Positions 1 to 44,199 of a stretch of DNA of 64,000 nt are shown one piece after another. The position numbers and the translations under genes are program-made. The stretch covers positions 46,976 to 110,975 of the forward strand of contig CAWDPO010000013.1 in NCBI GenBank assembly GCA_963804165.1, in the 5' to 3' direction. Under the pieces are notes generated by a model. That model was not told the DNA's origin. It saw only the letters and a list, made by a program, of their open reading frames with translations, and searched no databases. This stretch comes from an uncultured delta proteobacterium (GTDB lineage Bacteria > Desulfobacterota > Binatia > UBA9968). The first letter of the stretch is position 1. The number at the start of each line of letters is the position of its first letter.

Positions 1-536
1 TCTTGCCAACGGCTCGGGTTACGGCTTAAGTCCCGGGCTAAAAAAATTGTGAGTCTCTTCATCACCAAGGGTACGCACTTCAGACTTTTGGATAGCACCA
101 GGCTATGGAAATTGTCAATTCAATCCGCCTGCGTTTACCCGCACGGATGAAACTGAATCGGATCAGTTCTTGAATAATGTTTGGCAGTTGAACGGTCAGG
201 TGCGGTGAGGATCGATCTTACTACTCGTCTTGTGTCGGCGCGGTCATATTCATAGCGAAATTGGTAGTGGCGGCCGTCTGGCAATTTGATCAAATCGAAT
301 GCGGCACCGATTACCGCATGGCAATTCTTTATTTCCGACCTTATGATGCTTTAGAACTTGTTTATTCATAGATTGTTTGTTCTGCGAACAAGCAGGGTGT
401 GACTCAATTGATGTCGAGAAGGGTACAGAAGAAATGGCGATTCATCCGCTTGCGGGAAAGGCTGCAACCCGGCATATATTGCAAGCAGTGTTTACATTTG
501 TCGGAGCGTAAGACCAACGATGAGTGATCGGCCAAG

Positions 537-28891: not shown

Positions 28892-29308
28892 ATGCATCAC
28901 TTGTCTCGCTTCGGCGTCTCGCTGGAAAATGATCTGCTTGAGGCCTTCGACAAAAGCATCGAAGGTCTCGGCTACGAAAATCGCTCGGAAGCGATTCGCG
29001 ATCTGATTCGCGACCACTTGATTCAAAAAAAGGTCGGCAAAGGCGGCGAAGCAGTCGTCGGCGTCATAAGTCTTTTATACGATCATCGAACTCACCATTT
29101 AAGCGATGTCCTGGCCGATATGCAGCATCGGGCCAGCGTCGTGGTCAATGCTAGCTTGCATATTCACCTCGACGCGCACAATTGCTTGGAAGTCATCGTG
29201 GTTCGTGGCGGCGCGGATAAGGTCCATGAAGTCGCTGGCAAGCTCATCGCCACCAAAGGTGTGCAGAACGGTAAGCTCGTGACCACGACACCGGAAATGA
29301 AGCATTAA
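28892..29308 (+). CDS. nikR: nickel-responsive transcriptional regulator NikR
   Basis: RHH 'RFGVSL...FD......GYENRSEAIRDLIR'; metal site 'YDH', 'QH', 'HIHLDAHNCLE'. Confidence 0.95.
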   Translation: MHHLSRFGVSLENDLLEAFDKSIEGLGYENRSEAIRDLIRDHLIQKKVGKGGEAVVGVISLLYDHRTHHLSDVLADMQHRASVVVNASLHIHLDAHNCLEVIVVRGGADKVHEVAGKLIATKGVQNGKLVTTTPEMKH

Positions 29309-36100: not shown

Positions 36101-36937
36101 ATGACTTTTTTAAGTCCCTTTGAATACGAATTTTTTCGCAACGGGTTGATCGCCGCCGTCGTCATCGGCGCGCTCTGTGGTTTTATCGGCGTCTACGTCG
36201 TGCTGCGCCGCATGAGCTACATCGGCCACGGCTTGTCCCATGCCATTTTCGGCGGCGCGGTGCTCAGCTACGTATTGAATATCAATTTTTTTATCGGCGG
36301 CGGTCTGTGGGCGCTTTTCGCGGGCGTCTTGATTCATTGGATCAGCCACCGCCGCTGGGTCGGGGCTGACGCCGCAATCGGCGTCGTGACCACCTCGAGT
36401 TTTGCTTTAGGCGTTGCGATCATCTCTACCCACCGCACTTTCACTCGCAACATCGAATCCGCGCTGTTCGGCAATATCCTCGGCATCACTCAAACTGACG
36501 TCTGGATCGTTGTCTTTATCTCTCTGCTGGTGTCCGGCGCGCTTTTTTTGATCCGTCGGCCGCTGCTATTCTCAACGTTCGATCCCGAAGTCGCATCGGC
36601 TTACGGCGTGGCGACCGGCAAGATCGATCTCCTCTTTATTATGCTCCTAGCCGTTACGGTTCTCGCCTCGACGCAAATCCTCGGCGTGACGTTGGTCGCC
36701 GCGGCCATGGTGATTCCGCCGGTCATCGCGCGTTACTTGACGCAGCGATTCCAAACTCTGCTGATTGTCTCACCGCTGCTCGGCGCGTTTTGCGGCGCTG
36801 CCGGCATGTTTTTGAGTTTTCATTTCGATATCTCCTCCGCCGCCACCATCGTGCTCACCTCTGCCGCACTTTTCATCTTCGTCGAGCTCGCCCTGTTCGC
36901 GCGCGGCAAAGAGCCGGCGCCGATTCACGAGCATTGA
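36101..36937 (+). CDS. metal ABC transporter permease (ZnuB-like)
   Basis: 'GVYVVLRRMSYIGHGLSHA', 'LFGNILG', 'FDPEVA'. Confidence 0.92.
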   Translation: MTFLSPFEYEFFRNGLIAAVVIGALCGFIGVYVVLRRMSYIGHGLSHAIFGGAVLSYVLNINFFIGGGLWALFAGVLIHWISHRRWVGADAAIGVVTTSSFALGVAIISTHRTFTRNIESALFGNILGITQTDVWIVVFISLLVSGALFLIRRPLLFSTFDPEVASAYGVATGKIDLLFIMLLAVTVLASTQILGVTLVAAAMVIPPVIARYLTQRFQTLLIVSPLLGAFCGAAGMFLSFHFDISSAATIVLTSAALFIFVELALFARGKEPAPIHEH

Positions 36938-37069
36938 GAGCGGCTCGTTCCTCATTCCGTTCGGTGCGGCAACGTGGGTATATTCATAAGGCCAACGATC
37001 GCTGGAAATCCTCGATCTTAAGTTCGCGTCGAAATTATGCTGAAATGATCTGCCGAGAAGGGAATTGAG

Positions 37070-37474
37070 ATGACACTACGCAACCTGATTGCGATAGCCG
37101 CCTCGATGATTGCATTGCCGCTCTTCGCCTGGGCGCAACACGATCATTCGACACCGGCGAAACCCGCCACTGCAAAGACCGCGAAACCGGCGCCCAAACC
37201 GGCGGAGGGCGCGAGCATCAAGATTATTTCACCGACCACTGGCCAGGTCCTCAAAGGTGACAAAGTGCCTATCGAGTATAAGCTCACCAAAGGTAAGCGC
37301 GGCCACCACGCCCACGCCTATGTGGACGGCGAGCTAATGGGTATGTTCGAAAGCGAAAAGGGCACGCTCAACGGCATCAAACCCGGCAAACATTTATTGG
37401 AGCTGCGCGTCGTCGCCACCGATCACGAAACCGAGTTGAACGCCAGCGACAAGGTCCAGTTCACAGTCAAATAG
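37070..37474 (+). CDS. His-rich periplasmic putative metal-binding protein (Ig-like)
   Basis: Signal peptide then QHDH; 'GHHAHAYVDG', 'PGKHLLEL...TDH'. Confidence 0.75.
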   Translation: MTLRNLIAIAASMIALPLFAWAQHDHSTPAKPATAKTAKPAPKPAEGASIKIISPTTGQVLKGDKVPIEYKLTKGKRGHHAHAYVDGELMGMFESEKGTLNGIKPGKHLLELRVVATDHETELNASDKVQFTVK

Positions 37475-37503
37475 TGTGCACTGCCTGCACAAAGCCCGGC
37501 TGC

Positions 37504-37532
37504 TTGCGCTGTCAAAGCGGTCCGACTAGGAT
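37504..37532 (+). promoter_or_regulatory. putative sigma70 promoter upstream of the RAPP leader ORF
   Basis: TTGCGC-17 bp-TAGGAT, 15 nt before the ATG at 37548. Confidence 0.4.
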
Positions 37533-37547
37533 GGCCCGTAATTGCCG

Positions 37548-37946
37548 ATGAACCCCGGAAGACCAGTCTCTAAACACCAGCGCGGCCTATACCTGAGCGT
37601 CGCCGCCGCGTTCTGGTTTTTTCTCGCCGCGTCCGCGCCGCACCGGGTGCATCATTTTTTCGTCGGGCAAGTTCTTGCGCCGCGGGCGCAAATCGCCGTC
37701 CACGCCCAGGAGCGCGGTGAGCATCACAGCCACGATGATCATGACCGTCAACACGACCAACGACCGCTGCAGCAAAACGATTGCAGCGTCTTGTCCGTCG
37801 CTCAAAACGCGCACGCTTCAATCGTTCAGCCGTTTTCCTTTACCGTTCTCGAATGCGCGGTTACGCGCCGGCACGAACGGCCCGTAATAAGCGCGCCATC
37901 GTTCAATCCGGCACCTTTTTCTCAGCGCGCGCCGCCCCTGCTCTAG
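37548..37946 (+). CDS. DUF2946/CruR/CutF-like exported leader protein with His-rich region and C-terminal RAPP motif
   Basis: Hydrophobic N-terminus, HRVHH, EHHSHDDHDRQHD, Cys, Pro-rich tail ending QRAPPLL*. Confidence 0.75.
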   Translation: MNPGRPVSKHQRGLYLSVAAAFWFFLAASAPHRVHHFFVGQVLAPRAQIAVHAQERGEHHSHDDHDRQHDQRPLQQNDCSVLSVAQNAHASIVQPFSFTVLECAVTRRHERPVISAPSFNPAPFSQRAPPLL

Positions 37947-38175
37947 CCTTTTCCTGTTTTTCCCAAACTACTTTCGCCGTTATCGTTGAGCTCGCACTTC
38001 GATAGGTTATTTGTCGAACGAGAGGTTTAAATGTTGCTTCGCCGCCAATCCGTCGGCGGGTCTGCTGCTTTGATGGCACCGAATCGTCGAATCGCGGCGA
38101 GATCTGTGTGCGCATCGCGGTAAAAGCGATTTGGCCTAATGATCGAATCATTAAGCGACCAGGCAGGTGATAGGT

Positions 38176-39501
38176 ATGAGAGCGTATTTCACCAGATCGG
38201 CATCAATTCTATGCTGCTTGCTTTTTTTCGGATGTAGTTCCAATACGGCCGTGCCGGCCGCGGCAAGCCGGACGAACCGGGTGACGTTCGGACCGGAGAT
38301 CAGCATCGGCAACGCGGAAGCGAATCCCGCGACGCCGTTTCTGCGTTACGCTCCAGACGGCCGGCTCTTTGCTGTATGGACCGAGGACCACGATACACCG
38401 TGGCCGCAAGGAAAAGATTCCACCGGACACCATCGTATGTCGGGCGATCGAGCGCCGTCGCCGATGCGCAACGTATTTCTCGCCTGGTCGACGGACAGAG
38501 GAAAAACTTGGTCAGCGCGCAAGCGGGTGAATAGCGAAGTCGAAGCCGTCCAAGGAGAAGAAAACGGACCCAAAGTCGCGTTCGACGCCAACAACCGGGC
38601 CTACGTTGTCTGGTCGATCCCGGGAAGGAAAGGAGACAAGACCCGCGCCAATATTCGCTTCGCTAGGGACGACGGCAAAGGTGGCTTTACGCCTGCGCGA
38701 ACCTTGAACGAAATTGAGGACGCCGCTCGCTTTCCGATCATCGAAGCGACGCCCGCAGGCGATTTCCTGATCGCCTGGATCGACCGGCGCATCGACAATC
38801 CGAAACCGCGCCAACTCTATTTAATTAGGCTCGGTGGCGACGGGAAAGCGCTGACGAAGAATTATCCGGTCGGGGAAGGCCTTTGTGAGTGTTGCAAACT
38901 GGGCGTCGCATTCGCCGGCGGCAGCAAAACGGTCTATATGGTGGACCGTGAAGTAGACGGCAATAAAATTCGCAACCACGTGCTACGCAAGTCGACGGAT
39001 GGTGCCGCGACCTTCAGCGCGCCGGTCGAAATCAGTGACGACGGCTGGCAAGTGCCCTCCTGTCCACACTCGGGCCCGAGCATCGGTCGCGACCGCCGCG
39101 GTTGGCTCCACGTGACCTGGTTCACCCTAGGCCGCTCGGAAAAAGAAGCGGGCATTTATTACAGCGTGTCGAAAGACGATGGCAAAAGCTTTGAACCTCG
39201 CCAGCTGGTGCACGCCAACACGGCGCCGGAAACTCTCTATGCCAACTTAGCGGTGGGCGATGACGATAACATTTACCTGGCATGGAGTAATCTCGACAAT
39301 CGCAGCCGGGCGCAAATATTCATGCGCACGATTGCAAGCGATGGTAAAACCTGGAGCCCGATACAGCAGATCAGCGACGCTAAAGCCAACGCCAGCCGGC
39401 CGGTTCTGGCGTTGCGCGAGAATCACGTGCACATTGCTTGGACGGAAACGGACAGTGAGGACTCACGCGTGGTCCTCAGAAGCGCGGCGGTGGACCGGTG
39501 A
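38176..39501 (+). CDS. BNR/Asp-box (sialidase-like) lipoprotein with CECC and CPH motifs
   Basis: Lipobox LFFGC; Asp boxes STDRGKTW, STDGAATF, SKDDGKSF, SDGKTW; 'LCECCK', 'WQVPSCPHSGP'. Confidence 0.8.
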   Translation: MRAYFTRSASILCCLLFFGCSSNTAVPAAASRTNRVTFGPEISIGNAEANPATPFLRYAPDGRLFAVWTEDHDTPWPQGKDSTGHHRMSGDRAPSPMRNVFLAWSTDRGKTWSARKRVNSEVEAVQGEENGPKVAFDANNRAYVVWSIPGRKGDKTRANIRFARDDGKGGFTPARTLNEIEDAARFPIIEATPAGDFLIAWIDRRIDNPKPRQLYLIRLGGDGKALTKNYPVGEGLCECCKLGVAFAGGSKTVYMVDREVDGNKIRNHVLRKSTDGAATFSAPVEISDDGWQVPSCPHSGPSIGRDRRGWLHVTWFTLGRSEKEAGIYYSVSKDDGKSFEPRQLVHANTAPETLYANLAVGDDDNIYLAWSNLDNRSRAQIFMRTIASDGKTWSPIQQISDAKANASRPVLALRENHVHIAWTETDSEDSRVVLRSAAVDR

Positions 39502-40079
39502 AGTCAAATTCAATTGTGGCGATACTCCTCATCCATTGGCGGAATGTGAGGTTGTTGGCATCAGCGCTCTGTTGCGCCGCCGCGATTGCGCTAGCGCCGG
39601 CGACCGGCTGGACGCAGCACGAGCACAACACCGGCCAAAGCGCCGTGCCATCGGTCGGTGGTCCGGCGATACCGTTCGATCTCAAATCGCTCGAAGGCAA
39701 GTCGGTCGGATTGGCAAGCTTCCGCGGTCAGCCGTTAGTGCTGAACTTTTTCGCTAGTTGGTGCGATCCCTGCCGCGAGGAAATGCCGCTGATCAATGAT
39801 CTCGCGTCAAGGAGTGCCACGGAGGGTTACAGCGTGCTGGGCGTCGCCGTCGAAGACAGCCGTGCCGCGGTGACGGAGTACGCCAAAGAAACCAAGCTGG
39901 TCTTTCCGATCGCGCTCGACTTGAACAGCACGGTGAAGCGCGCCTATCGCATCTTCGGCCCGCCGGCGACGTTTTTCATCGATGCTCAGGGCGTCGTTCG
40001 CGACATCGTTCTTGGTCCATTGACACGCGAGCGGGCACTTGAAGCACTTAAGAAAACCAGAGCGGTCGTGAAGAACTAA
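39498..40079 (+). CDS. TlpA/ResA-like thiol-disulfide reductase
   Basis: 'LNFFASWCDPCREEMP', 'GPPATFFID'; QHEH after the signal peptide. Confidence 0.9.
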   Translation: MKSNSIVAILLIHWRNVRLLASALCCAAAIALAPATGWTQHEHNTGQSAVPSVGGPAIPFDLKSLEGKSVGLASFRGQPLVLNFFASWCDPCREEMPLINDLASRSATEGYSVLGVAVEDSRAAVTEYAKETKLVFPIALDLNSTVKRAYRIFGPPATFFIDAQGVVRDIVLGPLTRERALEALKKTRAVVKN

Positions 40080-40100
40080 AAACGATTGTTTTTCAAATCG

Positions 40101-41018
40101 ATGTTTTCTGACAGAACGCCCATTTACGTGGGTGCGATCACTTTCCTGTTAATCGTGGCGACTCCTTATGCGGCGGCAGGCGTGCCAATTCGTTCGCAAG
40201 ACGGCCCACTTCGGGTAGTCGAATCCTACCTCCGGGCAACTCAAGCGCGCGACTTTGGAACGGCCTACAGCTACATTTCCAACACCGACCAACGGATCAG
40301 GGACAAAGCCGGCTATCTGCGATCTCAGGAATACCTCAGCGGTTTCGCCCTCGAGCTTGCCAACCGACTCGTCGCTAAAATGAAAGTGTGGGTGATCAAT
40401 CAAAAAGTCGGACCGGCGAAGGCCCGTTTCGAAGTCGGCTATCGACGACCCGCCGGTGATGAAATTTCGTCACGACTTTTCGATTGGAATGCCAGCAAGC
40501 TCAACGCTCTACCGCAGAGCGAACAGCGGCGCCTGGCCGAAGCTTTGGAAAATTTCCAAAGATCAGGAAAGATGGTATCCCTCGAAGGGCACGAGACTTT
40601 GGATCTCGTACGTGAGAAAGACGGATGGAAAATTTTTCTCGATTGGGCAGCGCGCTCGCGCGTTATTTTCGCCTCGACGACGCCGTCCTCCGGTGCACTG
40701 GAGGTTCAGTTTCCACGCAATGATTTTCTGGTTGCAACCAACGAGCCGTTTCAAATCGACTTCACGGTCAGAAACCGAAGCCCGCGCGCGACGGTCGCCA
40801 GACTCACCCACCTTATCGAGCCGCGCGGTTTGGCCAAGAACGTGGAGATGATCGCGTGCGGTTCACTGTCGCCGCTGCGGCTCAAGCCGGGTCAAGCTCG
40901 GGAAGTGTCCAGCTCGTATATCTTAGGAGGTGATCTTTCTCCCCGATCGCGTCTCTTGATCATCTACCAATTTACTTTAGAGTCCAAACTCGCGGCGACG
41001 AACCCGTCTCGCGAGTGA
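40101..41018 (+). CDS. exported protein with an NTF2-like N-domain and Cox11/CtaG-like C-domain, paralog 1
   Basis: Shares 'YL.A..ARDF..AY.Y/F', 'LFDW', 'LV.E.DGW.IFL.WAA' and 'H.IEP...C...P..L.PG' with two neighbours. Confidence 0.7.
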   Translation: MFSDRTPIYVGAITFLLIVATPYAAAGVPIRSQDGPLRVVESYLRATQARDFGTAYSYISNTDQRIRDKAGYLRSQEYLSGFALELANRLVAKMKVWVINQKVGPAKARFEVGYRRPAGDEISSRLFDWNASKLNALPQSEQRRLAEALENFQRSGKMVSLEGHETLDLVREKDGWKIFLDWAARSRVIFASTTPSSGALEVQFPRNDFLVATNEPFQIDFTVRNRSPRATVARLTHLIEPRGLAKNVEMIACGSLSPLRLKPGQAREVSSSYILGGDLSPRSRLLIIYQFTLESKLAATNPSRE

Positions 41019-41042
41019 GCGACGCAGAATCCGGTTATTTTG

Positions 41043-41957
41043 ATGGCAAGTAACGACCGCTGTCCGCGAGGGAGATTCAATCCGCCGCGATCCTTGCGGA
41101 TCGCTCTCTTCCTAGTGCTCGTGGCTCAGGAAACTCTTCACTGTGCCGAACAGTCGTTCAATCAGCACGCATCCGCCTCCGTGATTCACGCTTATCTGCG
41201 GGCGACTTATGCCCGCGACTTCGCCACGGCGTATCGCTTTGTCTCCGCCGAAGATCGTAAAGTGCGCGACCTAAATCGCTACCTCCGGCAACGTGGACCG
41301 TATGACGGCTTCATTCTGGAAGCAGCGAAGAAGCTGAGCGAATTCGTCGAAATTCAAGCGCTGAAGACGCGCGAATCGCCGAACCGCGTTCACGTGTCGA
41401 TCAAATACCGCGTTCCCGACCCGCAAAAACTCGCACTGCTACTATTCAACTGGGATCCGTACCGCTTGAATGCTTTGCTGCCGACCGAGCAAAAACAACT
41501 TATCGATTTGCTGGACAAACGGGGTACCGAAGGCTCACTCGCGATGAGCCAAGGCGAAGAAGCCTTCGAGTTGGTCAAAGAATCTGACGGCTGGCGCATT
41601 TTTTTGAACTGGGCCGCGGGCGTGAAGATCCCGCTCCGGCTCGACTTATCTAAGTCAACGGACCTGGACGTTGCGCTTTCGAAGAATGAATTTGTCCTAC
41701 AGCCCGGCGAGCTATTCGAGATTGTTTTGCGAATCAAGAACCACGCCAAGCAGCCGGTTACTGTGCGCATCGGACATCTAGTCGAGCCCAGCTCGATCGC
41801 CGATTTTCTCGATTTTGTTCAATGCGGTTTTCTCCTACCGGTCACAGTTCAGCCCGAAAAGGAACAAGAATTTTCAGGCACCTACATGTTACGAGGCAGC
41901 CTCCCCGAAGGCATTCGTCAATTGACTTTGACCTACGACTTCCGCCAGCTTAAGTAA
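41043..41957 (+). CDS. exported protein with an NTF2-like N-domain and Cox11/CtaG-like C-domain, paralog 2
   Basis: 'YLRATYARDFATAYRF', 'QPGELF..V..KN', 'HLVEP', 'VQCGFLLP', 'LPEGIRQLTLTYDF'. Confidence 0.72.
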   Translation: MASNDRCPRGRFNPPRSLRIALFLVLVAQETLHCAEQSFNQHASASVIHAYLRATYARDFATAYRFVSAEDRKVRDLNRYLRQRGPYDGFILEAAKKLSEFVEIQALKTRESPNRVHVSIKYRVPDPQKLALLLFNWDPYRLNALLPTEQKQLIDLLDKRGTEGSLAMSQGEEAFELVKESDGWRIFLNWAAGVKIPLRLDLSKSTDLDVALSKNEFVLQPGELFEIVLRIKNHAKQPVTVRIGHLVEPSSIADFLDFVQCGFLLPVTVQPEKEQEFSGTYMLRGSLPEGIRQLTLTYDFRQLK

Positions 41958-42059
41958 TCCTTTGACGCGAGAGGGCTCCCGTATCTGGCGCGCCCATCTT
42001 TTTTGTGATTAATTAAAAATGGAATTTGTTCGTCTAATCCATCGTGAGGCGAGAAACTG

Positions 42060-42653
42060 ATGAAAAACTTTAGCCGCATTTTTGTTCTGCTGTTTTGGAC
42101 CGTCGTCGGTCCACGTCAATTGGGCGAGGTCATTCTCGTTCGACCCCTTTCGATCGGCGCTGCCAACGCTCAAGATTCCGCCTTTGAATCGAAAAAGATC
42201 GTTCCGTTCGTGCCCTCGCCACAAGTGGTGGTGGATAAGATGGTCGAGCTCGCGGGTGTGAAAAAAGGCGACGTCGTGTTCGACCTGGGTTCGGGCGACG
42301 GCCGGATCGTCATCGCGGCGGCAAAAAGAGGCGCCACGGCGATCGGCTTTGAAATCGACGGCGATCTGGTGAAGGAGTCGCGCGAGAATATTCGCAAGGC
42401 CGGCGTTCAGGATTTAGCCGAGATTCGCCAGCAGGATATTCTCACCGTCGACTTTTCGCCTGCGTCAGTGGTGACCATGTATTTGCTGCCCGACGTCAAC
42501 TTGAAGTTGAAACCCAATCTTTTGAGTCAGCTCAAACCCGGCTCGCGTCTCGTCTCTCATGCCTTCGACATGGGCGACTGGAAACCGGAGAAAGTCGAGC
42601 GGGTCGAGGGGCGTACGGTCTATTTTTGGACCATTCCGGCAAAGGGACGCTAA
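42060..42653 (+). CDS. SAM-dependent methyltransferase (FAM173/DOT1-like bacterial type)
   Basis: 'VPFVPSP..VV..M..LA', 'DLGSGDGRIVIAAAK', 'VVTMYLL', 'LKPGSRLVSHAF'. Confidence 0.85.
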   Translation: MKNFSRIFVLLFWTVVGPRQLGEVILVRPLSIGAANAQDSAFESKKIVPFVPSPQVVVDKMVELAGVKKGDVVFDLGSGDGRIVIAAAKRGATAIGFEIDGDLVKESRENIRKAGVQDLAEIRQQDILTVDFSPASVVTMYLLPDVNLKLKPNLLSQLKPGSRLVSHAFDMGDWKPEKVERVEGRTVYFWTIPAKGR

Positions 42654-42698
42654 TCCGAGCGGGGGATCCTCGACCAAGATTCTGCCTTGACCACCCGA

Positions 42699-43592
42699 AT
42701 GCCCCGCCTTGTTAAAAATTTTCTTCTGTTCGTTTTTACGGCTGCCACGCTGGCGCTGCCCGGGATCTATTGGATCAACACGGTCGGCGACAGACGCCCT
42801 GAGGACCCGACCCAGGTTTTGTCGAAATATCTTAAATTCCTTTATGCGCGCGATTTTCGTCACGCGTATCGATTCATCGCCAGCGAAGATCAGCAGTTGA
42901 AACCGCAAAAAGATTACATCCGCGAGCACGACCCGTTCAGTGGTTTCGCGTTGCAAGCCGCGCGCAAGCTGGCCGGCCTGATCGAGCTCAGGCCGGTATC
43001 GGAGCAACCGGATGGGAAAGCCAGCCGCGTCCGGGTCGCTATGAAGCTTCCTGACGCCAAAGGGATCTCGGAGTTATTGCTCGACTGGGATGAAAAACGG
43101 TTGAACGCCCTGTCGGTGCCGGCGCAAAATAAGATTATTTCGACCATCGACAACCTGATTCGGCAACGGAAATTGCCGATGATCGAGGGCGAGGAAGAGT
43201 TTGTCTTGGTGAAAGAAGACGCGCTTTGGAAAGTTAAACTCAATTGGGCTGCCGGCGTTAAGGTTAAGTTTGCCACCGTTCTGCCGCACAACGGCGACCT
43301 GGTGGCGGAACCGATCACCAAGGAAACGGTTGCACGCTCGGACGACTTATTTACAATCGGATTCAAAGTAAAAAACCGCGCCTCCCGCGAAGTCGTCACT
43401 CGGATCGCGCACCGGGTCGAGCCCAAGGAGTTTGCACAATATCTGGATCTCGTCGAATGCGCTCTTTTACTTCCTGTGCGGCTTCGCCCGGGCGAAGAGC
43501 AAACTTATAACAGCACCTATGTCGTTCGCGGCGATTTGCCGGACGGCATCAAAGGCCTGGACGTTACCTATGAGTTCAAAGTCGAAAATTAA
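42699..43592 (+). CDS. membrane-anchored protein with an NTF2-like N-domain and Cox11/CtaG-like C-domain, paralog 3
   Basis: 'YLKFLYARDFRHAYRF', 'HRVEP', 'YLDLVECALLLP.RLRPGEEQ', 'LPDGIKGLDVTYEF'. Confidence 0.72.
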   Translation: MPRLVKNFLLFVFTAATLALPGIYWINTVGDRRPEDPTQVLSKYLKFLYARDFRHAYRFIASEDQQLKPQKDYIREHDPFSGFALQAARKLAGLIELRPVSEQPDGKASRVRVAMKLPDAKGISELLLDWDEKRLNALSVPAQNKIISTIDNLIRQRKLPMIEGEEEFVLVKEDALWKVKLNWAAGVKVKFATVLPHNGDLVAEPITKETVARSDDLFTIGFKVKNRASREVVTRIAHRVEPKEFAQYLDLVECALLLPVRLRPGEEQTYNSTYVVRGDLPDGIKGLDVTYEFKVEN

Positions 43593-44199
43593 CCGGGCAC
43601 TTTTTTTCGCCCTGACCACGACGACTCTTTTCTCGCCAGTCGCCTGGTCTCATATCCCTATTCCGCCCAAAGCACCGAGCGAAATAGGCCGCCGAGTCGT
43701 GAAAACCGCCGTGCCGGACTTCAATCTCACCGATCAAGACGGCAAACCGTTTCACTTCGCCGCGGCAAGAGGAAAATTGATTCTGATCAATTTCATATTC
43801 ACGACCTGTCCTGACGTCTGCCCGCTGTTAACGGCCAATTTCGCAGCGATCCATCGGACGTTGGACGAAAACAAGGTCAAAGACTATCTGTTGCTCAGCA
43901 TTACCACCGATCCCGAACGGGACACGGCGCCGATTTTGAAGGACTACGCCGGCCGCTTCAAAGCCGACTTGAAGCATTGGTCGTTTCTGACCGGCACCCG
44001 CCCGGAGTTGGCCAAAGTATGGAAAGGCTTCGGCATCAACGTCGTCAAAAACGAGTCCGGACAAGTGCAGCACACGACGTTCACGACTTTGGTGGATCGC
44101 CAAGGTAACCGTCGGGTCGACTACTACGGCGACAAATGGCAGGACAAGGAAGTTCTCAATGATCTTGGGAGGCTGCGCGCGCGAAAACCTTTAAGTTAA
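43570..44199 (+). CDS. SCO1/SenC family protein
   Basis: 'FIFTTCPDVCP', 'ITTDPERD', 'VQHT'. Confidence 0.9.
   Translation: MSSKSKINRALFFALTTTTLFSPVAWSHIPIPPKAPSEIGRRVVKTAVPDFNLTDQDGKPFHFAAARGKLILINFIFTTCPDVCPLLTANFAAIHRTLDENKVKDYLLLSITTDPERDTAPILKDYAGRFKADLKHWSFLTGTRPELAKVWKGFGINVVKNESGQVQHTTFTTLVDRQGNRRVDYYGDKWQDKEVLNDLGRLRARKPLS

Follow-up and report, generated by a model that had tools for sequence, protein, structure and literature searches.

A RAPP-ending leader peptide with one conserved cysteine at the head of metal-gene clusters in Binatia: a candidate nascent-chain metal switch

What does a small, histidine-rich exported peptide that ends in a ribosome-arrest motif do at the head of a cluster of metal-related genes? 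The question is raised by an open reading frame (ORF) encoding 132 amino acids (aa) at positions 37548-37946 of a 64,000-nucleotide stretch of DNA (contig CAWDPO010000013.1; the whole stretch is called the window here) from an uncultured bacterium of the Binatia. Window features are on the + strand. An earlier note, made from the sequence alone, had described the ORF as a leader peptide whose C-terminal RAPP sequence would stall the ribosome in response to nickel, cobalt, zinc or Cu(II), the CxxC of known copper-sensing leaders being replaced by a histidine array within an island of the nickel regulator NikR. Comparison with homologues indicates that the ORF is a real gene, belonging to an unannotated family that resembles CruR of Bordetella and other DUF2946 proteins. 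It is fairly probable that its product acts as a metal-sensing RAPP arrest peptide and governs the downstream operon.

The ORF starts with the ATG at 37548, in agreement with the N-termini of the homologues (an additional in-frame TTG is found at 37542), and ends with the TAG at 37944-37946. Its product has all the parts that the earlier note had listed: a hydrophobic segment, the sequence HRVHH (residues 32-36), the stretch EHHSHDDHDRQHD (residues 58-70), two cysteines that form no CxxC motif (C79 and C103, the only ones present), and QRAPP (residues 126-130, 37923-37937) two codons, Leu-Leu, before the stop. The hydrophobic segment (residues 13-30, 37584-37637) is preceded by the basic residues R5, K9 and R12. 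AlphaFold2, run on the family alignment, predicts a membrane helix at residues 9-28 with a predicted local distance difference test score (pLDDT) of 88-95. Beyond this helix the model has one short helix (residues 80-86), the rest being coil, and shows no folded domain (mean pLDDT of 70, predicted template modelling score of 0.29). The hydrophobic segment closes with ASA, and the next residue is an invariant proline; ASA precedes PHRVHH in 98 proteins. A proline at position +1 blocks signal peptidase, so the segment is probably an uncleaved signal anchor with its N-terminus inside and its C-terminus outside the membrane.

The anchor is followed by the invariant motif P31 H32 R33 V34 H35 H36 (37638-37655), a source of candidate membrane-proximal metal ligands. 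A His/Asp-rich linker, extending from H52 to D70 (37701-37757), is predicted to be coil (pLDDT 55-60) and varies among the homologues. The motif DCSVLSVAQNAHAS (37779-37820), situated at the position of the DUF2946 CxxC, holds the invariant C79 (37782-37784) and H89. The C-terminal part of the peptide is a putative arrest module, FNPAPFSQRAPP (residues 119-130, 37902-37937), with R127, A128, P129 and P130 invariant. It is separated from the stop codon by the Leu-Leu tail (37938-37946 with the TAG), the length of which is fixed in the family. The geometry of a stall at this module was taken from the structures of ApdA and ApdP (PMC10951233) and from the CruR toeprint (PMC12992588).

A single RAPP in one genome proves nothing, because the motif is about as frequent there as control words. 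Within the last nine residues it occurs in 26 of the 62,534 open frames of at least 60 aa in the genome of origin, with no enrichment over the controls (PPAR 34, AAPP 31, RAPA 27; overall range 20-34). The evidence beyond chance therefore rests on comparison with relatives. A word-indexed search found 131 homologues of the leader at E<=0.01, of which 120 were listed. An exhaustive HMMER search with the leader matched 88 clusters among 1.84 billion representatives, and a profile search with the leader family matched 565 proteins at E<=1. The relatives come from Candidatus Binatia metagenome-assembled genomes (MAGs) wherever the source gives a name. Their distribution across the class is patchy: a search with the family profile matched six of 151 sampled genomes of the class, the window's own among them, and four of the eight within the same family.

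The motifs are kept together. Among 223 family proteins fetched for motif and spacing counts, PH[RQ][VL]HH is present in 220, RAPP in 209 and both in 206; RAPP is also present in 118 of the 120 listed homologues. The fetched proteins without the full set resemble fragments or frameshifted calls. Upon alignment of 63 diverse members, P31, H32, V34, H35, H36, C79, R127, A128, P129 and P130 were found to be invariant (63/63), and the C-terminus has the consensus (F)NPxPFSQRAPP. The spacings were measured in the 206 proteins having both motifs. Of these, 186 have a tail of exactly two residues behind RAPP, and in 199 the invariant cysteine lies 48 residues before the Arg of RAPP (49 residues in six proteins and 39 in one). 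A histidine at Cys+10, corresponding to H89, is present in 171. The distance from HxxHH to RAPP varies between about 50 and 160 residues, because the His-rich linker changes length (18-104 aa, with 0-11 histidines, in 112 homologues). CxxC occurs in one of the 120 listed homologues. All four RAPP codons vary synonymously among 26 genomic copies (Arg as CGC, CGA, CGG or AGA, Ala as GCN, Pro as CCN); therefore selection acts on the peptide and not on the RNA. To judge from these alignments, the motifs and spacings are under selection, and the fixed candidate ligands are the membrane-proximal triad H32/H35/H36, C79 and the histidine at Cys+10.

The position of the gene is conserved as well. A scan of one genome per species gave 26 loci, 23 of which hold 25 intact copies of the leader gene; in L011 and L026 the copies are truncated or frameshifted, and none is intact in L016. 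As two of the 25 lie against a contig end, 23 copies are informative, and directly behind all 23 lie metal-type genes on the same strand. The first of these encodes a BNR propeller in 12 copies (and also in the window), a DUF4198 protein in three, a TonB-dependent receptor in two and a CopD-type protein in one. In four further copies a protein of about 314 aa without an assigned function precedes a DUF4198 gene and a CopD fusion, and in one an equally uncharacterised 136-aa protein precedes CopD. The BNR propeller is usually trailed by TlpA, Cox11-like, SCO and methyltransferase genes. The joint conservation for which the earlier note had asked, that of the membrane signal, the His motif, RAPP and the position at the head of a metal cluster, is thus borne out.

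The leader also appears, from the sequence around its start, to have a promoter of its own with a very short 5' leader. The promoter-like element consists of TTGCGC (37504-37509) and TAGGAT (37527-37532), separated by a spacer of 17 nucleotides (nt); it ends 15 nt upstream of the start codon and fits seven of the 12 consensus positions. The pattern TTGnnn-16..18-TAnnnT, ending 8-25 nt before the start, was found in 16 of 25 copies, as against 4 of 257 other gene starts of the same loci and 39 of 5200 random positions. This agrees with the element proposed in the earlier note; however, a single-sequence promoter scan called no sigma-70-type site in 36900-38500, so that the case for the promoter is a comparative one. 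No Shine-Dalgarno sequence precedes the leader start. Such an arrangement, a promoter of its own and a very short 5' leader without a Shine-Dalgarno sequence, would fit a regulatory ORF of low output.

The architecture is that of CruR (Bp2923) of Bordetella pertussis, the prototype of DUF2946, which has an export signal, a CXXC motif at residues 90-93 and, three residues before its end, RAPP (residues 139-142). The spacing between C90/C93 and R139 is constant to within 1-2 residues in more than 2000 homologues (PMC9426467). A 162-bp spacer follows cruR, and the rut (Rho utilization) site maps to a C>G bubble within the gene. RAPP is required for downstream expression, and copper triggers Rho-dependent termination (PMC9426467). 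Operons that begin with a cruR homologue contain TonB receptor, CopC/CopD and AhpC/TSA genes, and in Bradyrhizobium a homologue stands first in a copper-starvation operon for oxidase biogenesis (PMC9426467). Fujiwara et al. 2025 (PMC12992588) demonstrated that CruR arrests at RAPP in vitro.

Both CruR and the leader are small exported or anchored peptides heading a metal operon, with RAPP two to three residues from the C-terminus and a tightly fixed distance between cysteine and RAPP, 49 residues for the first cysteine of CruR and 48 in the leader family. Both are poorly structured in predictions, have a C>G tract at the 3' end of the gene and are followed by a long spacer. The types of neighbouring genes overlap (TonB receptors, CopC/CopD, AhpC/TSA-type redoxins). 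The likeness to CruR seen in the earlier note therefore holds for the export signal, the fixed Cys-RAPP distance, RAPP near the end, the long spacer and the place at the operon head (PMC9426467). Unlike CruR, the leader family lacks CxxC, the second cysteine being Leu, Gln or another residue, and has the invariant PHRVHH after the membrane helix and the histidine at Cys+10. It is found in Binatia-labelled MAGs and not in Proteobacteria, its island is headed by NikR, and it usually precedes a BNR propeller lipoprotein followed by TlpA, Cox11-like and SCO proteins.

The comparison changes one part of the earlier note. The NikR island is real and conserved, but the histidine array supposed to replace CxxC is not, since the linker containing EHHSHDDHDRQHD is variable. 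C79 lies 48 residues before the Arg of RAPP and the first cysteine of CruR lies 49 residues before it, which suggests that the CxxC was halved rather than replaced by histidines. C79, one of the two cysteines that the earlier note had called isolated, is invariant and has a fixed spacing to RAPP.

Formal membership in DUF2946 is another matter. The search with the Pfam model (PF11162) that the earlier note had called for gave 8.2 bits (E 5.4) for the window's leader, below the cut-off of 23.7, the match covering profile positions 8-117 of 117. A first scan gave no Pfam match of the leader at E<=1, and a six-frame DUF2946 search of the genome of origin found nothing above the cut-off. Among the sub-threshold Pfam matches, DUF2946 nevertheless ranks first for 39 of 63 members of the family; these 39 match it at E<=10, all below threshold and aligned end to end (best E 2.3e-4). 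A language-model search ranked a DUF2946 cluster second with a score of 0.97, which is a lead and not a test. Comparison of the leader-family profile with a weak DUF2946-like protein and with a four-sequence alignment, which represent weak DUF2946-like proteins and not bona fide DUF2946 sequences, gave short local matches only: 28 columns at the C-terminus (E 0.013) and 17 columns over the helix and His motif (probability 79%). When the DUF2946 model was run against 201 genomes sampled from the phylum, 14 matched at E<=0.01 and two exceeded the cut-off, most of the matches resembling noise. Three of the matches, at L034:1423-1704, L037:1489-1770 (- strand) and L039:1438-1710, are small CxxC...RAPP ORFs with DUF2946 scores of 17.9-22.2 bits, and are possible intermediates between DUF2946 and the leader family. 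A homologue search with the L034 protein found two proteins only, neither with a Pfam label.

The leader family therefore has the export or membrane segment, the C-terminal RAPP, the fixed Cys-RAPP spacing and the place at the head of a metal operon that characterise the CruR family, and lacks the Pfam score and the CXXC motif. The leader is probably CruR-like in its working and a distant relative of DUF2946, without being a demonstrated member. The best reading of the alignments is that the family is a distant single-cysteine branch of the DUF2946 kind in which the CxxC has been halved.

The RNA around the stop codon also resembles that of cruR. A pyrimidine-rich tract with C in excess of G covers the stall codons, the stop codon and about the first 45 nt of the spacer (37886-37990), and is a candidate region for loading of Rho; a rho gene is present in the source genome. 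In 40-nt windows centred at -50 to 0 relative to the stop, C exceeds G in all 26 copies; with centres at +10 to +20 it does so in 22-24 of the 26. The tract is about 100 nt long and is centred about 30 nt before the leader stop, so that a ribosome stalled at RAPP would occupy its middle. Pyrimidines make up 61% of the first 45 nt of the spacer, compared with 51% in 94 control gaps, and the difference C-G is +0.08 compared with 0.00. The pyrimidine-rich stretch and the gap of about 230 nt noticed previously in the window were measured as 73% pyrimidine over the first 45 nt and 229 nt, respectively. The spacer (37947-38175) ends in the Shine-Dalgarno sequence AGGTG (38165-38169) of the BNR gene, and its length ranges from 97 to 229 nt across 13 BNR-type loci. 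No Rfam family was found at E<=1 in 36900-38500. The word (C/T)TA(C/A/T)TTTCGCC is conserved in the five closest loci, at 37968-37978 in the window and aligned with it in L004-L007, about 20-30 nt past the leader stop.

These features suggest how the switch might operate. Transcription of the leader gene would start at its own promoter and leave almost no 5' leader. The N-terminal helix would bring the nascent chain to the membrane with its N-terminus inside and HxxHH at the outer face. With the ribosome stalled at RAPP, C79 would sit 50 residues behind the P site; as 50 residues approximate the combined length of the ribosome tunnel and the translocon, the cysteine would have just emerged from this conduit. 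When the metal is scarce, the stall would persist, the ribosome would cover the C>G tract and Rho would be kept off the transcript, so that RNA polymerase could read through the BNR-TlpA-Cox11-like-SCO operon, whose translation would then begin from its own Shine-Dalgarno sequence. When metal is abundant, C79 and H89 together with H32, H35 and H36 would bind it, and folding or a pulling force would free the arrest. Translation would then terminate two codons on, exposing the tract, and Rho would terminate transcription in the spacer. We lean slightly towards this polarity, in which scarcity of metal keeps the operon on, because the genes under control are of the uptake and cofactor-insertion types.

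The metal is less clear than the geometry. Copper has about an even chance of being the one sensed, since SCO (CPDVC), TlpA (WCDPC), CopD and TonB receptors are typical companions of copper. The neighbours SCO, TlpA, CopD and TonB receptors point to this metal at least as much as to the nickel, cobalt or zinc named in the earlier note, and the SCO and TlpA motifs are intact. Nickel is a more tentative candidate, considered because a NikR with its nickel-site pattern kept heads the island, because DUF4198 neighbours occur, and because the leader has lost its second cysteine and C-A-L-L replaces the C-F-C-F copper motif of CtaG (1so9) in a Cox11-like protein. The NikR homologue (28892-29308, RHH and NikR_C domains) retains the HxHx3HxC pattern of Pyrococcus horikoshii NikR (2bj1, E 2.8e-37). 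Eight of the 26 loci have, within 8 kb upstream, a NikR with 73-83% identity to that of the window; it is far more conserved than the leader, for which the identity is about 30-60%.

A more specific form of the nickel reading, which must be regarded as doubtful, would have the leader tuned to Ni(II) (or Cu(II)) and thereby make it the first arrest switch of the nascent-chain type for any metal except Cu(I). A clamp of three histidines and one cysteine, made of the anchored HxxHH with C79 and H89, would then form at the outer face of the membrane, C79 and H89 leaving the translocon just as the ribosome reaches RAPP. The leader CxxC and the CFCF of the three Cox11-like proteins are both Cu(I) bis-cysteine motifs, and each is found here without its second cysteine, as this form would have it; the nickel ligands of NikR and the leader relatives that precede DUF4198 genes fit it also. 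If it were true, the BNR-TlpA-Cox11-like-SCO set would be a trafficking line re-tooled for that metal.

Several observations weigh against the arrest switch as drawn here. The strict conservation of SAPHRVHHFFE and of the membrane anchor may just as well stem from a role of the finished protein. Because DUF2946 scores below threshold and CxxC is absent in 119 of the 120 homologues, the kinship with CruR is unproven, and the two differ in ligand chemistry. Copper is not to be assumed either, given that the NikR at the head of the island has intact nickel-site residues. A search of sequencing runs for the locus listed no RNA run, and the DNA runs that contain it have small shares only. Within the gene, the C>G tract mostly follows from the Pro, Ser and Ala codons of the arrest module, so that only its extension into the spacer is independent, and this is modest (mean C-G of +0.08 over 45 nt); the loci, moreover, are related, so that p-values overstate the effect. 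Finally, CutF of Rhodobacter capsulatus works with the opposite polarity (10.1101/2025.02.05.636593).

CutF is the precedent for the best of the other explanations, which we consider unlikely. By a logic like that of CutF and SecM, the metal would induce or prolong the stall, and the ribosome would melt a structure hiding the BNR Shine-Dalgarno sequence, turning the operon on in metal excess. CutF, encoded in cutFOG, is likewise of the DUF2946 type: it is exported, senses metal as a nascent chain, has its stall site in a Pro-rich C-terminus and controls the next gene after transcription; copper-induced stalling melts a stem-loop over the ribosome-binding site of cutO, the stall occurring at a PPP-repeat motif that interacts with EF-P (10.1101/2025.02.05.636593). 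In 12 of the 13 BNR-type loci the predicted partners of the BNR Shine-Dalgarno sequence and start do lie mostly within the last 66 nt of the leader. The spacer also contains a hairpin (37998-38018, TTCGATAGG / TTTGTCGAA in the window) whose position is conserved among the closest loci; a hairpin of 13 pairs is kept in the five closest, for which RNAalifold gave 17 pairs, seven of them with compensatory changes. The pairing between the Shine-Dalgarno sequence and the 3' end of the leader, however, is not clearly above controls (mean of 0.49, compared with 0.32 and 0.32 for two other coding segments and 0.38 for shuffles), and only five of the 13 loci outdo at least 17 of 20 composition-matched shuffles. 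Upon opening the footprint of a stalled ribosome, the accessibility of the Shine-Dalgarno sequence rose in some of the 13 loci and fell in others, going from 0.47 to 0.31 in the window. Neither the pairing nor the opened footprint was accepted as evidence for masking. The masking mechanism is unsupported at these loci. In addition, the downstream genes are not detoxification enzymes as they are for CutF; TonB receptors, CopD, SCO and TlpA are of the uptake and cofactor-insertion types, which are usually induced by scarcity.

Less likely still is that the finished protein is what matters. It would be an anchored, His-rich periplasmic protein that binds metal or hands it over to the BNR/SCO/Cox11-like system, and RAPP would be merely a conserved C-terminal tag for interaction or degradation, or a translation brake. 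The invariant SAPHRVHHFFE, the membrane anchor, which the proline after ASA suggests is retained, and a linker resembling the His-rich tails of metal-storage proteins are all in keeping with such a role. RAPP, however, is reported to be strongly avoided in bacterial proteomes unless it serves arrest (PMC12992588). A fixed two-residue tail and a 48-residue Cys-RAPP spacing beside a linker of free length are what is expected of a nascent-chain ruler and not of a folded domain, and AlphaFold2 shows no fold. The gene, moreover, is always the first behind its own promoter and has no Shine-Dalgarno sequence, which suggests a low output. That the peptide monitors secretion or insertion, as SecM, MifM, ApdA and ApdP do, the arrest being released by Sec/YidC pulling force and reporting translocon capacity instead of metal, is highly improbable in spite of the N-terminal membrane signal and RAPP shared with ApdA/ApdP (PMC10951233, PMC7897499), because ApdA, ApdP and SecM precede sec genes whereas no sec or yidC gene lies downstream of the leader in the window or in the 23 informative loci, the membrane helix is about 100 residues before the stall site and thus too far to time insertion with arrest, the downstream genes are metal-related, and the conserved Cys/His sensor pattern would be left without a role.

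Other RAPP leaders complete the comparison. SLIV_16130 and SLIV_18480 of Streptomyces lividans share with the leader a C-terminal RAPP, a localisation signal and conserved Cys/His residues proposed as ligands (PMC12992588). Fujiwara et al. 2025 (PMC12992588), who surveyed RAPP and RGPP leaders preceding metal and thioredoxin genes, describe similar settings, with metal-homeostasis or thioredoxin-fold genes downstream, in other sequence families and phyla. The words BNR, sialidase, Binatia and DUF2946 are absent from the main text of that paper; its supplementary lists, like those of PMC9426467, may already include members of the leader family. A literature search on Binatia/Binatota in connection with copper or RAPP yielded no paper on the leader family.

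The genes presumed to be under leader control extend from 38176 to 44199, with identities that Pfam confirms: the BNR propeller lipoprotein (38176-39501, BNR_2), a TlpA-like protein (39498-40079, AhpC-TSA/Redoxin), two Cox11-like proteins (40086-41018 and 41040-41957, CtaG_Cox11), a methyltransferase (42060-42653), a third Cox11-like protein (42687-43592, CtaG_Cox11) and SCO (43432-44199, SCO1/SenC). The order BNR-TlpA-Cox11-like-SCO is repeated in homologous loci. Upstream, Pfam identifies the block headed by NikR as comprising a TonB-dependent receptor, an MFS protein, TonB, a methyltransferase and a ZnuABC-type importer.

The lipobox cysteine of the BNR/Asp-box propeller is residue 20. In 15 of 15 homologues M97, C237, C239, C240, H268, C296, H298 and H312 are invariant; C237, C239 and C240 form CxCC within GLCECCK, and C296 and H298 belong to SCPH. 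This Cys/His/Met set looks like an undescribed metal or redox centre. The three paralogous Cox11-like proteins, of about 300 aa each, end in a Cox11/CtaG-like domain scoring 19.9, 27.6 and 31.4 bits with Pfam. Compared with CtaG (1so9, E 0.02), the third retains the first cysteine alone in the motif that has become C-A-L-L.

Some loci contain more than one leader. In L014 three leader paralogues lie about 3 kb apart, each heading its own cluster: DUF4198-CopD (L014:5016-5381), BNR (L014:7968-8363) and a TonB receptor (L014:10933-11517). L008:5043-5441 is a second copy in its genome, with the C-terminus out of frame and RAPP lost. Just upstream of the window's leader, 37070-37474 encodes a small periplasmic protein with the sequence GHHAHAYVDGE. 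It has no Pfam family above cut-off, and related sequence recurs in the loci both as free proteins of about 140 aa and within CopD fusions of about 417 aa. An inverted repeat, GTGCA-N5-TGCAC (37476-37490), is situated between the stop codon of this gene and the -35-like hexamer of the leader.

To our knowledge, the reading of a metal by a protein that is still on the ribosome has been studied only in the copper-sensing leaders CruR and CutF. The principle of a metal-sensing leader is known, and the novelty lies in the single-cysteine branch. The leader family would be a natural variant with unusually rigid geometry, in which the sensor is reduced to one cysteine and a membrane-proximal HxxHH. 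The rigid ruler, the halved cysteine motif and the NikR/Cox11-like context set it apart. The rigidity makes the ruler itself, presumably the length of the tunnel plus the translocon, as well as the side of the membrane on which sensing occurs and the re-tuning to another metal, testable with few mutants. The family also flags an uncharacterised periplasmic system, apparently co-regulated, in a widespread uncultured soil lineage, the parts of which are the Cys/His-rich BNR propeller lipoprotein, single-cysteine Cox11-like proteins, SCO and TlpA.

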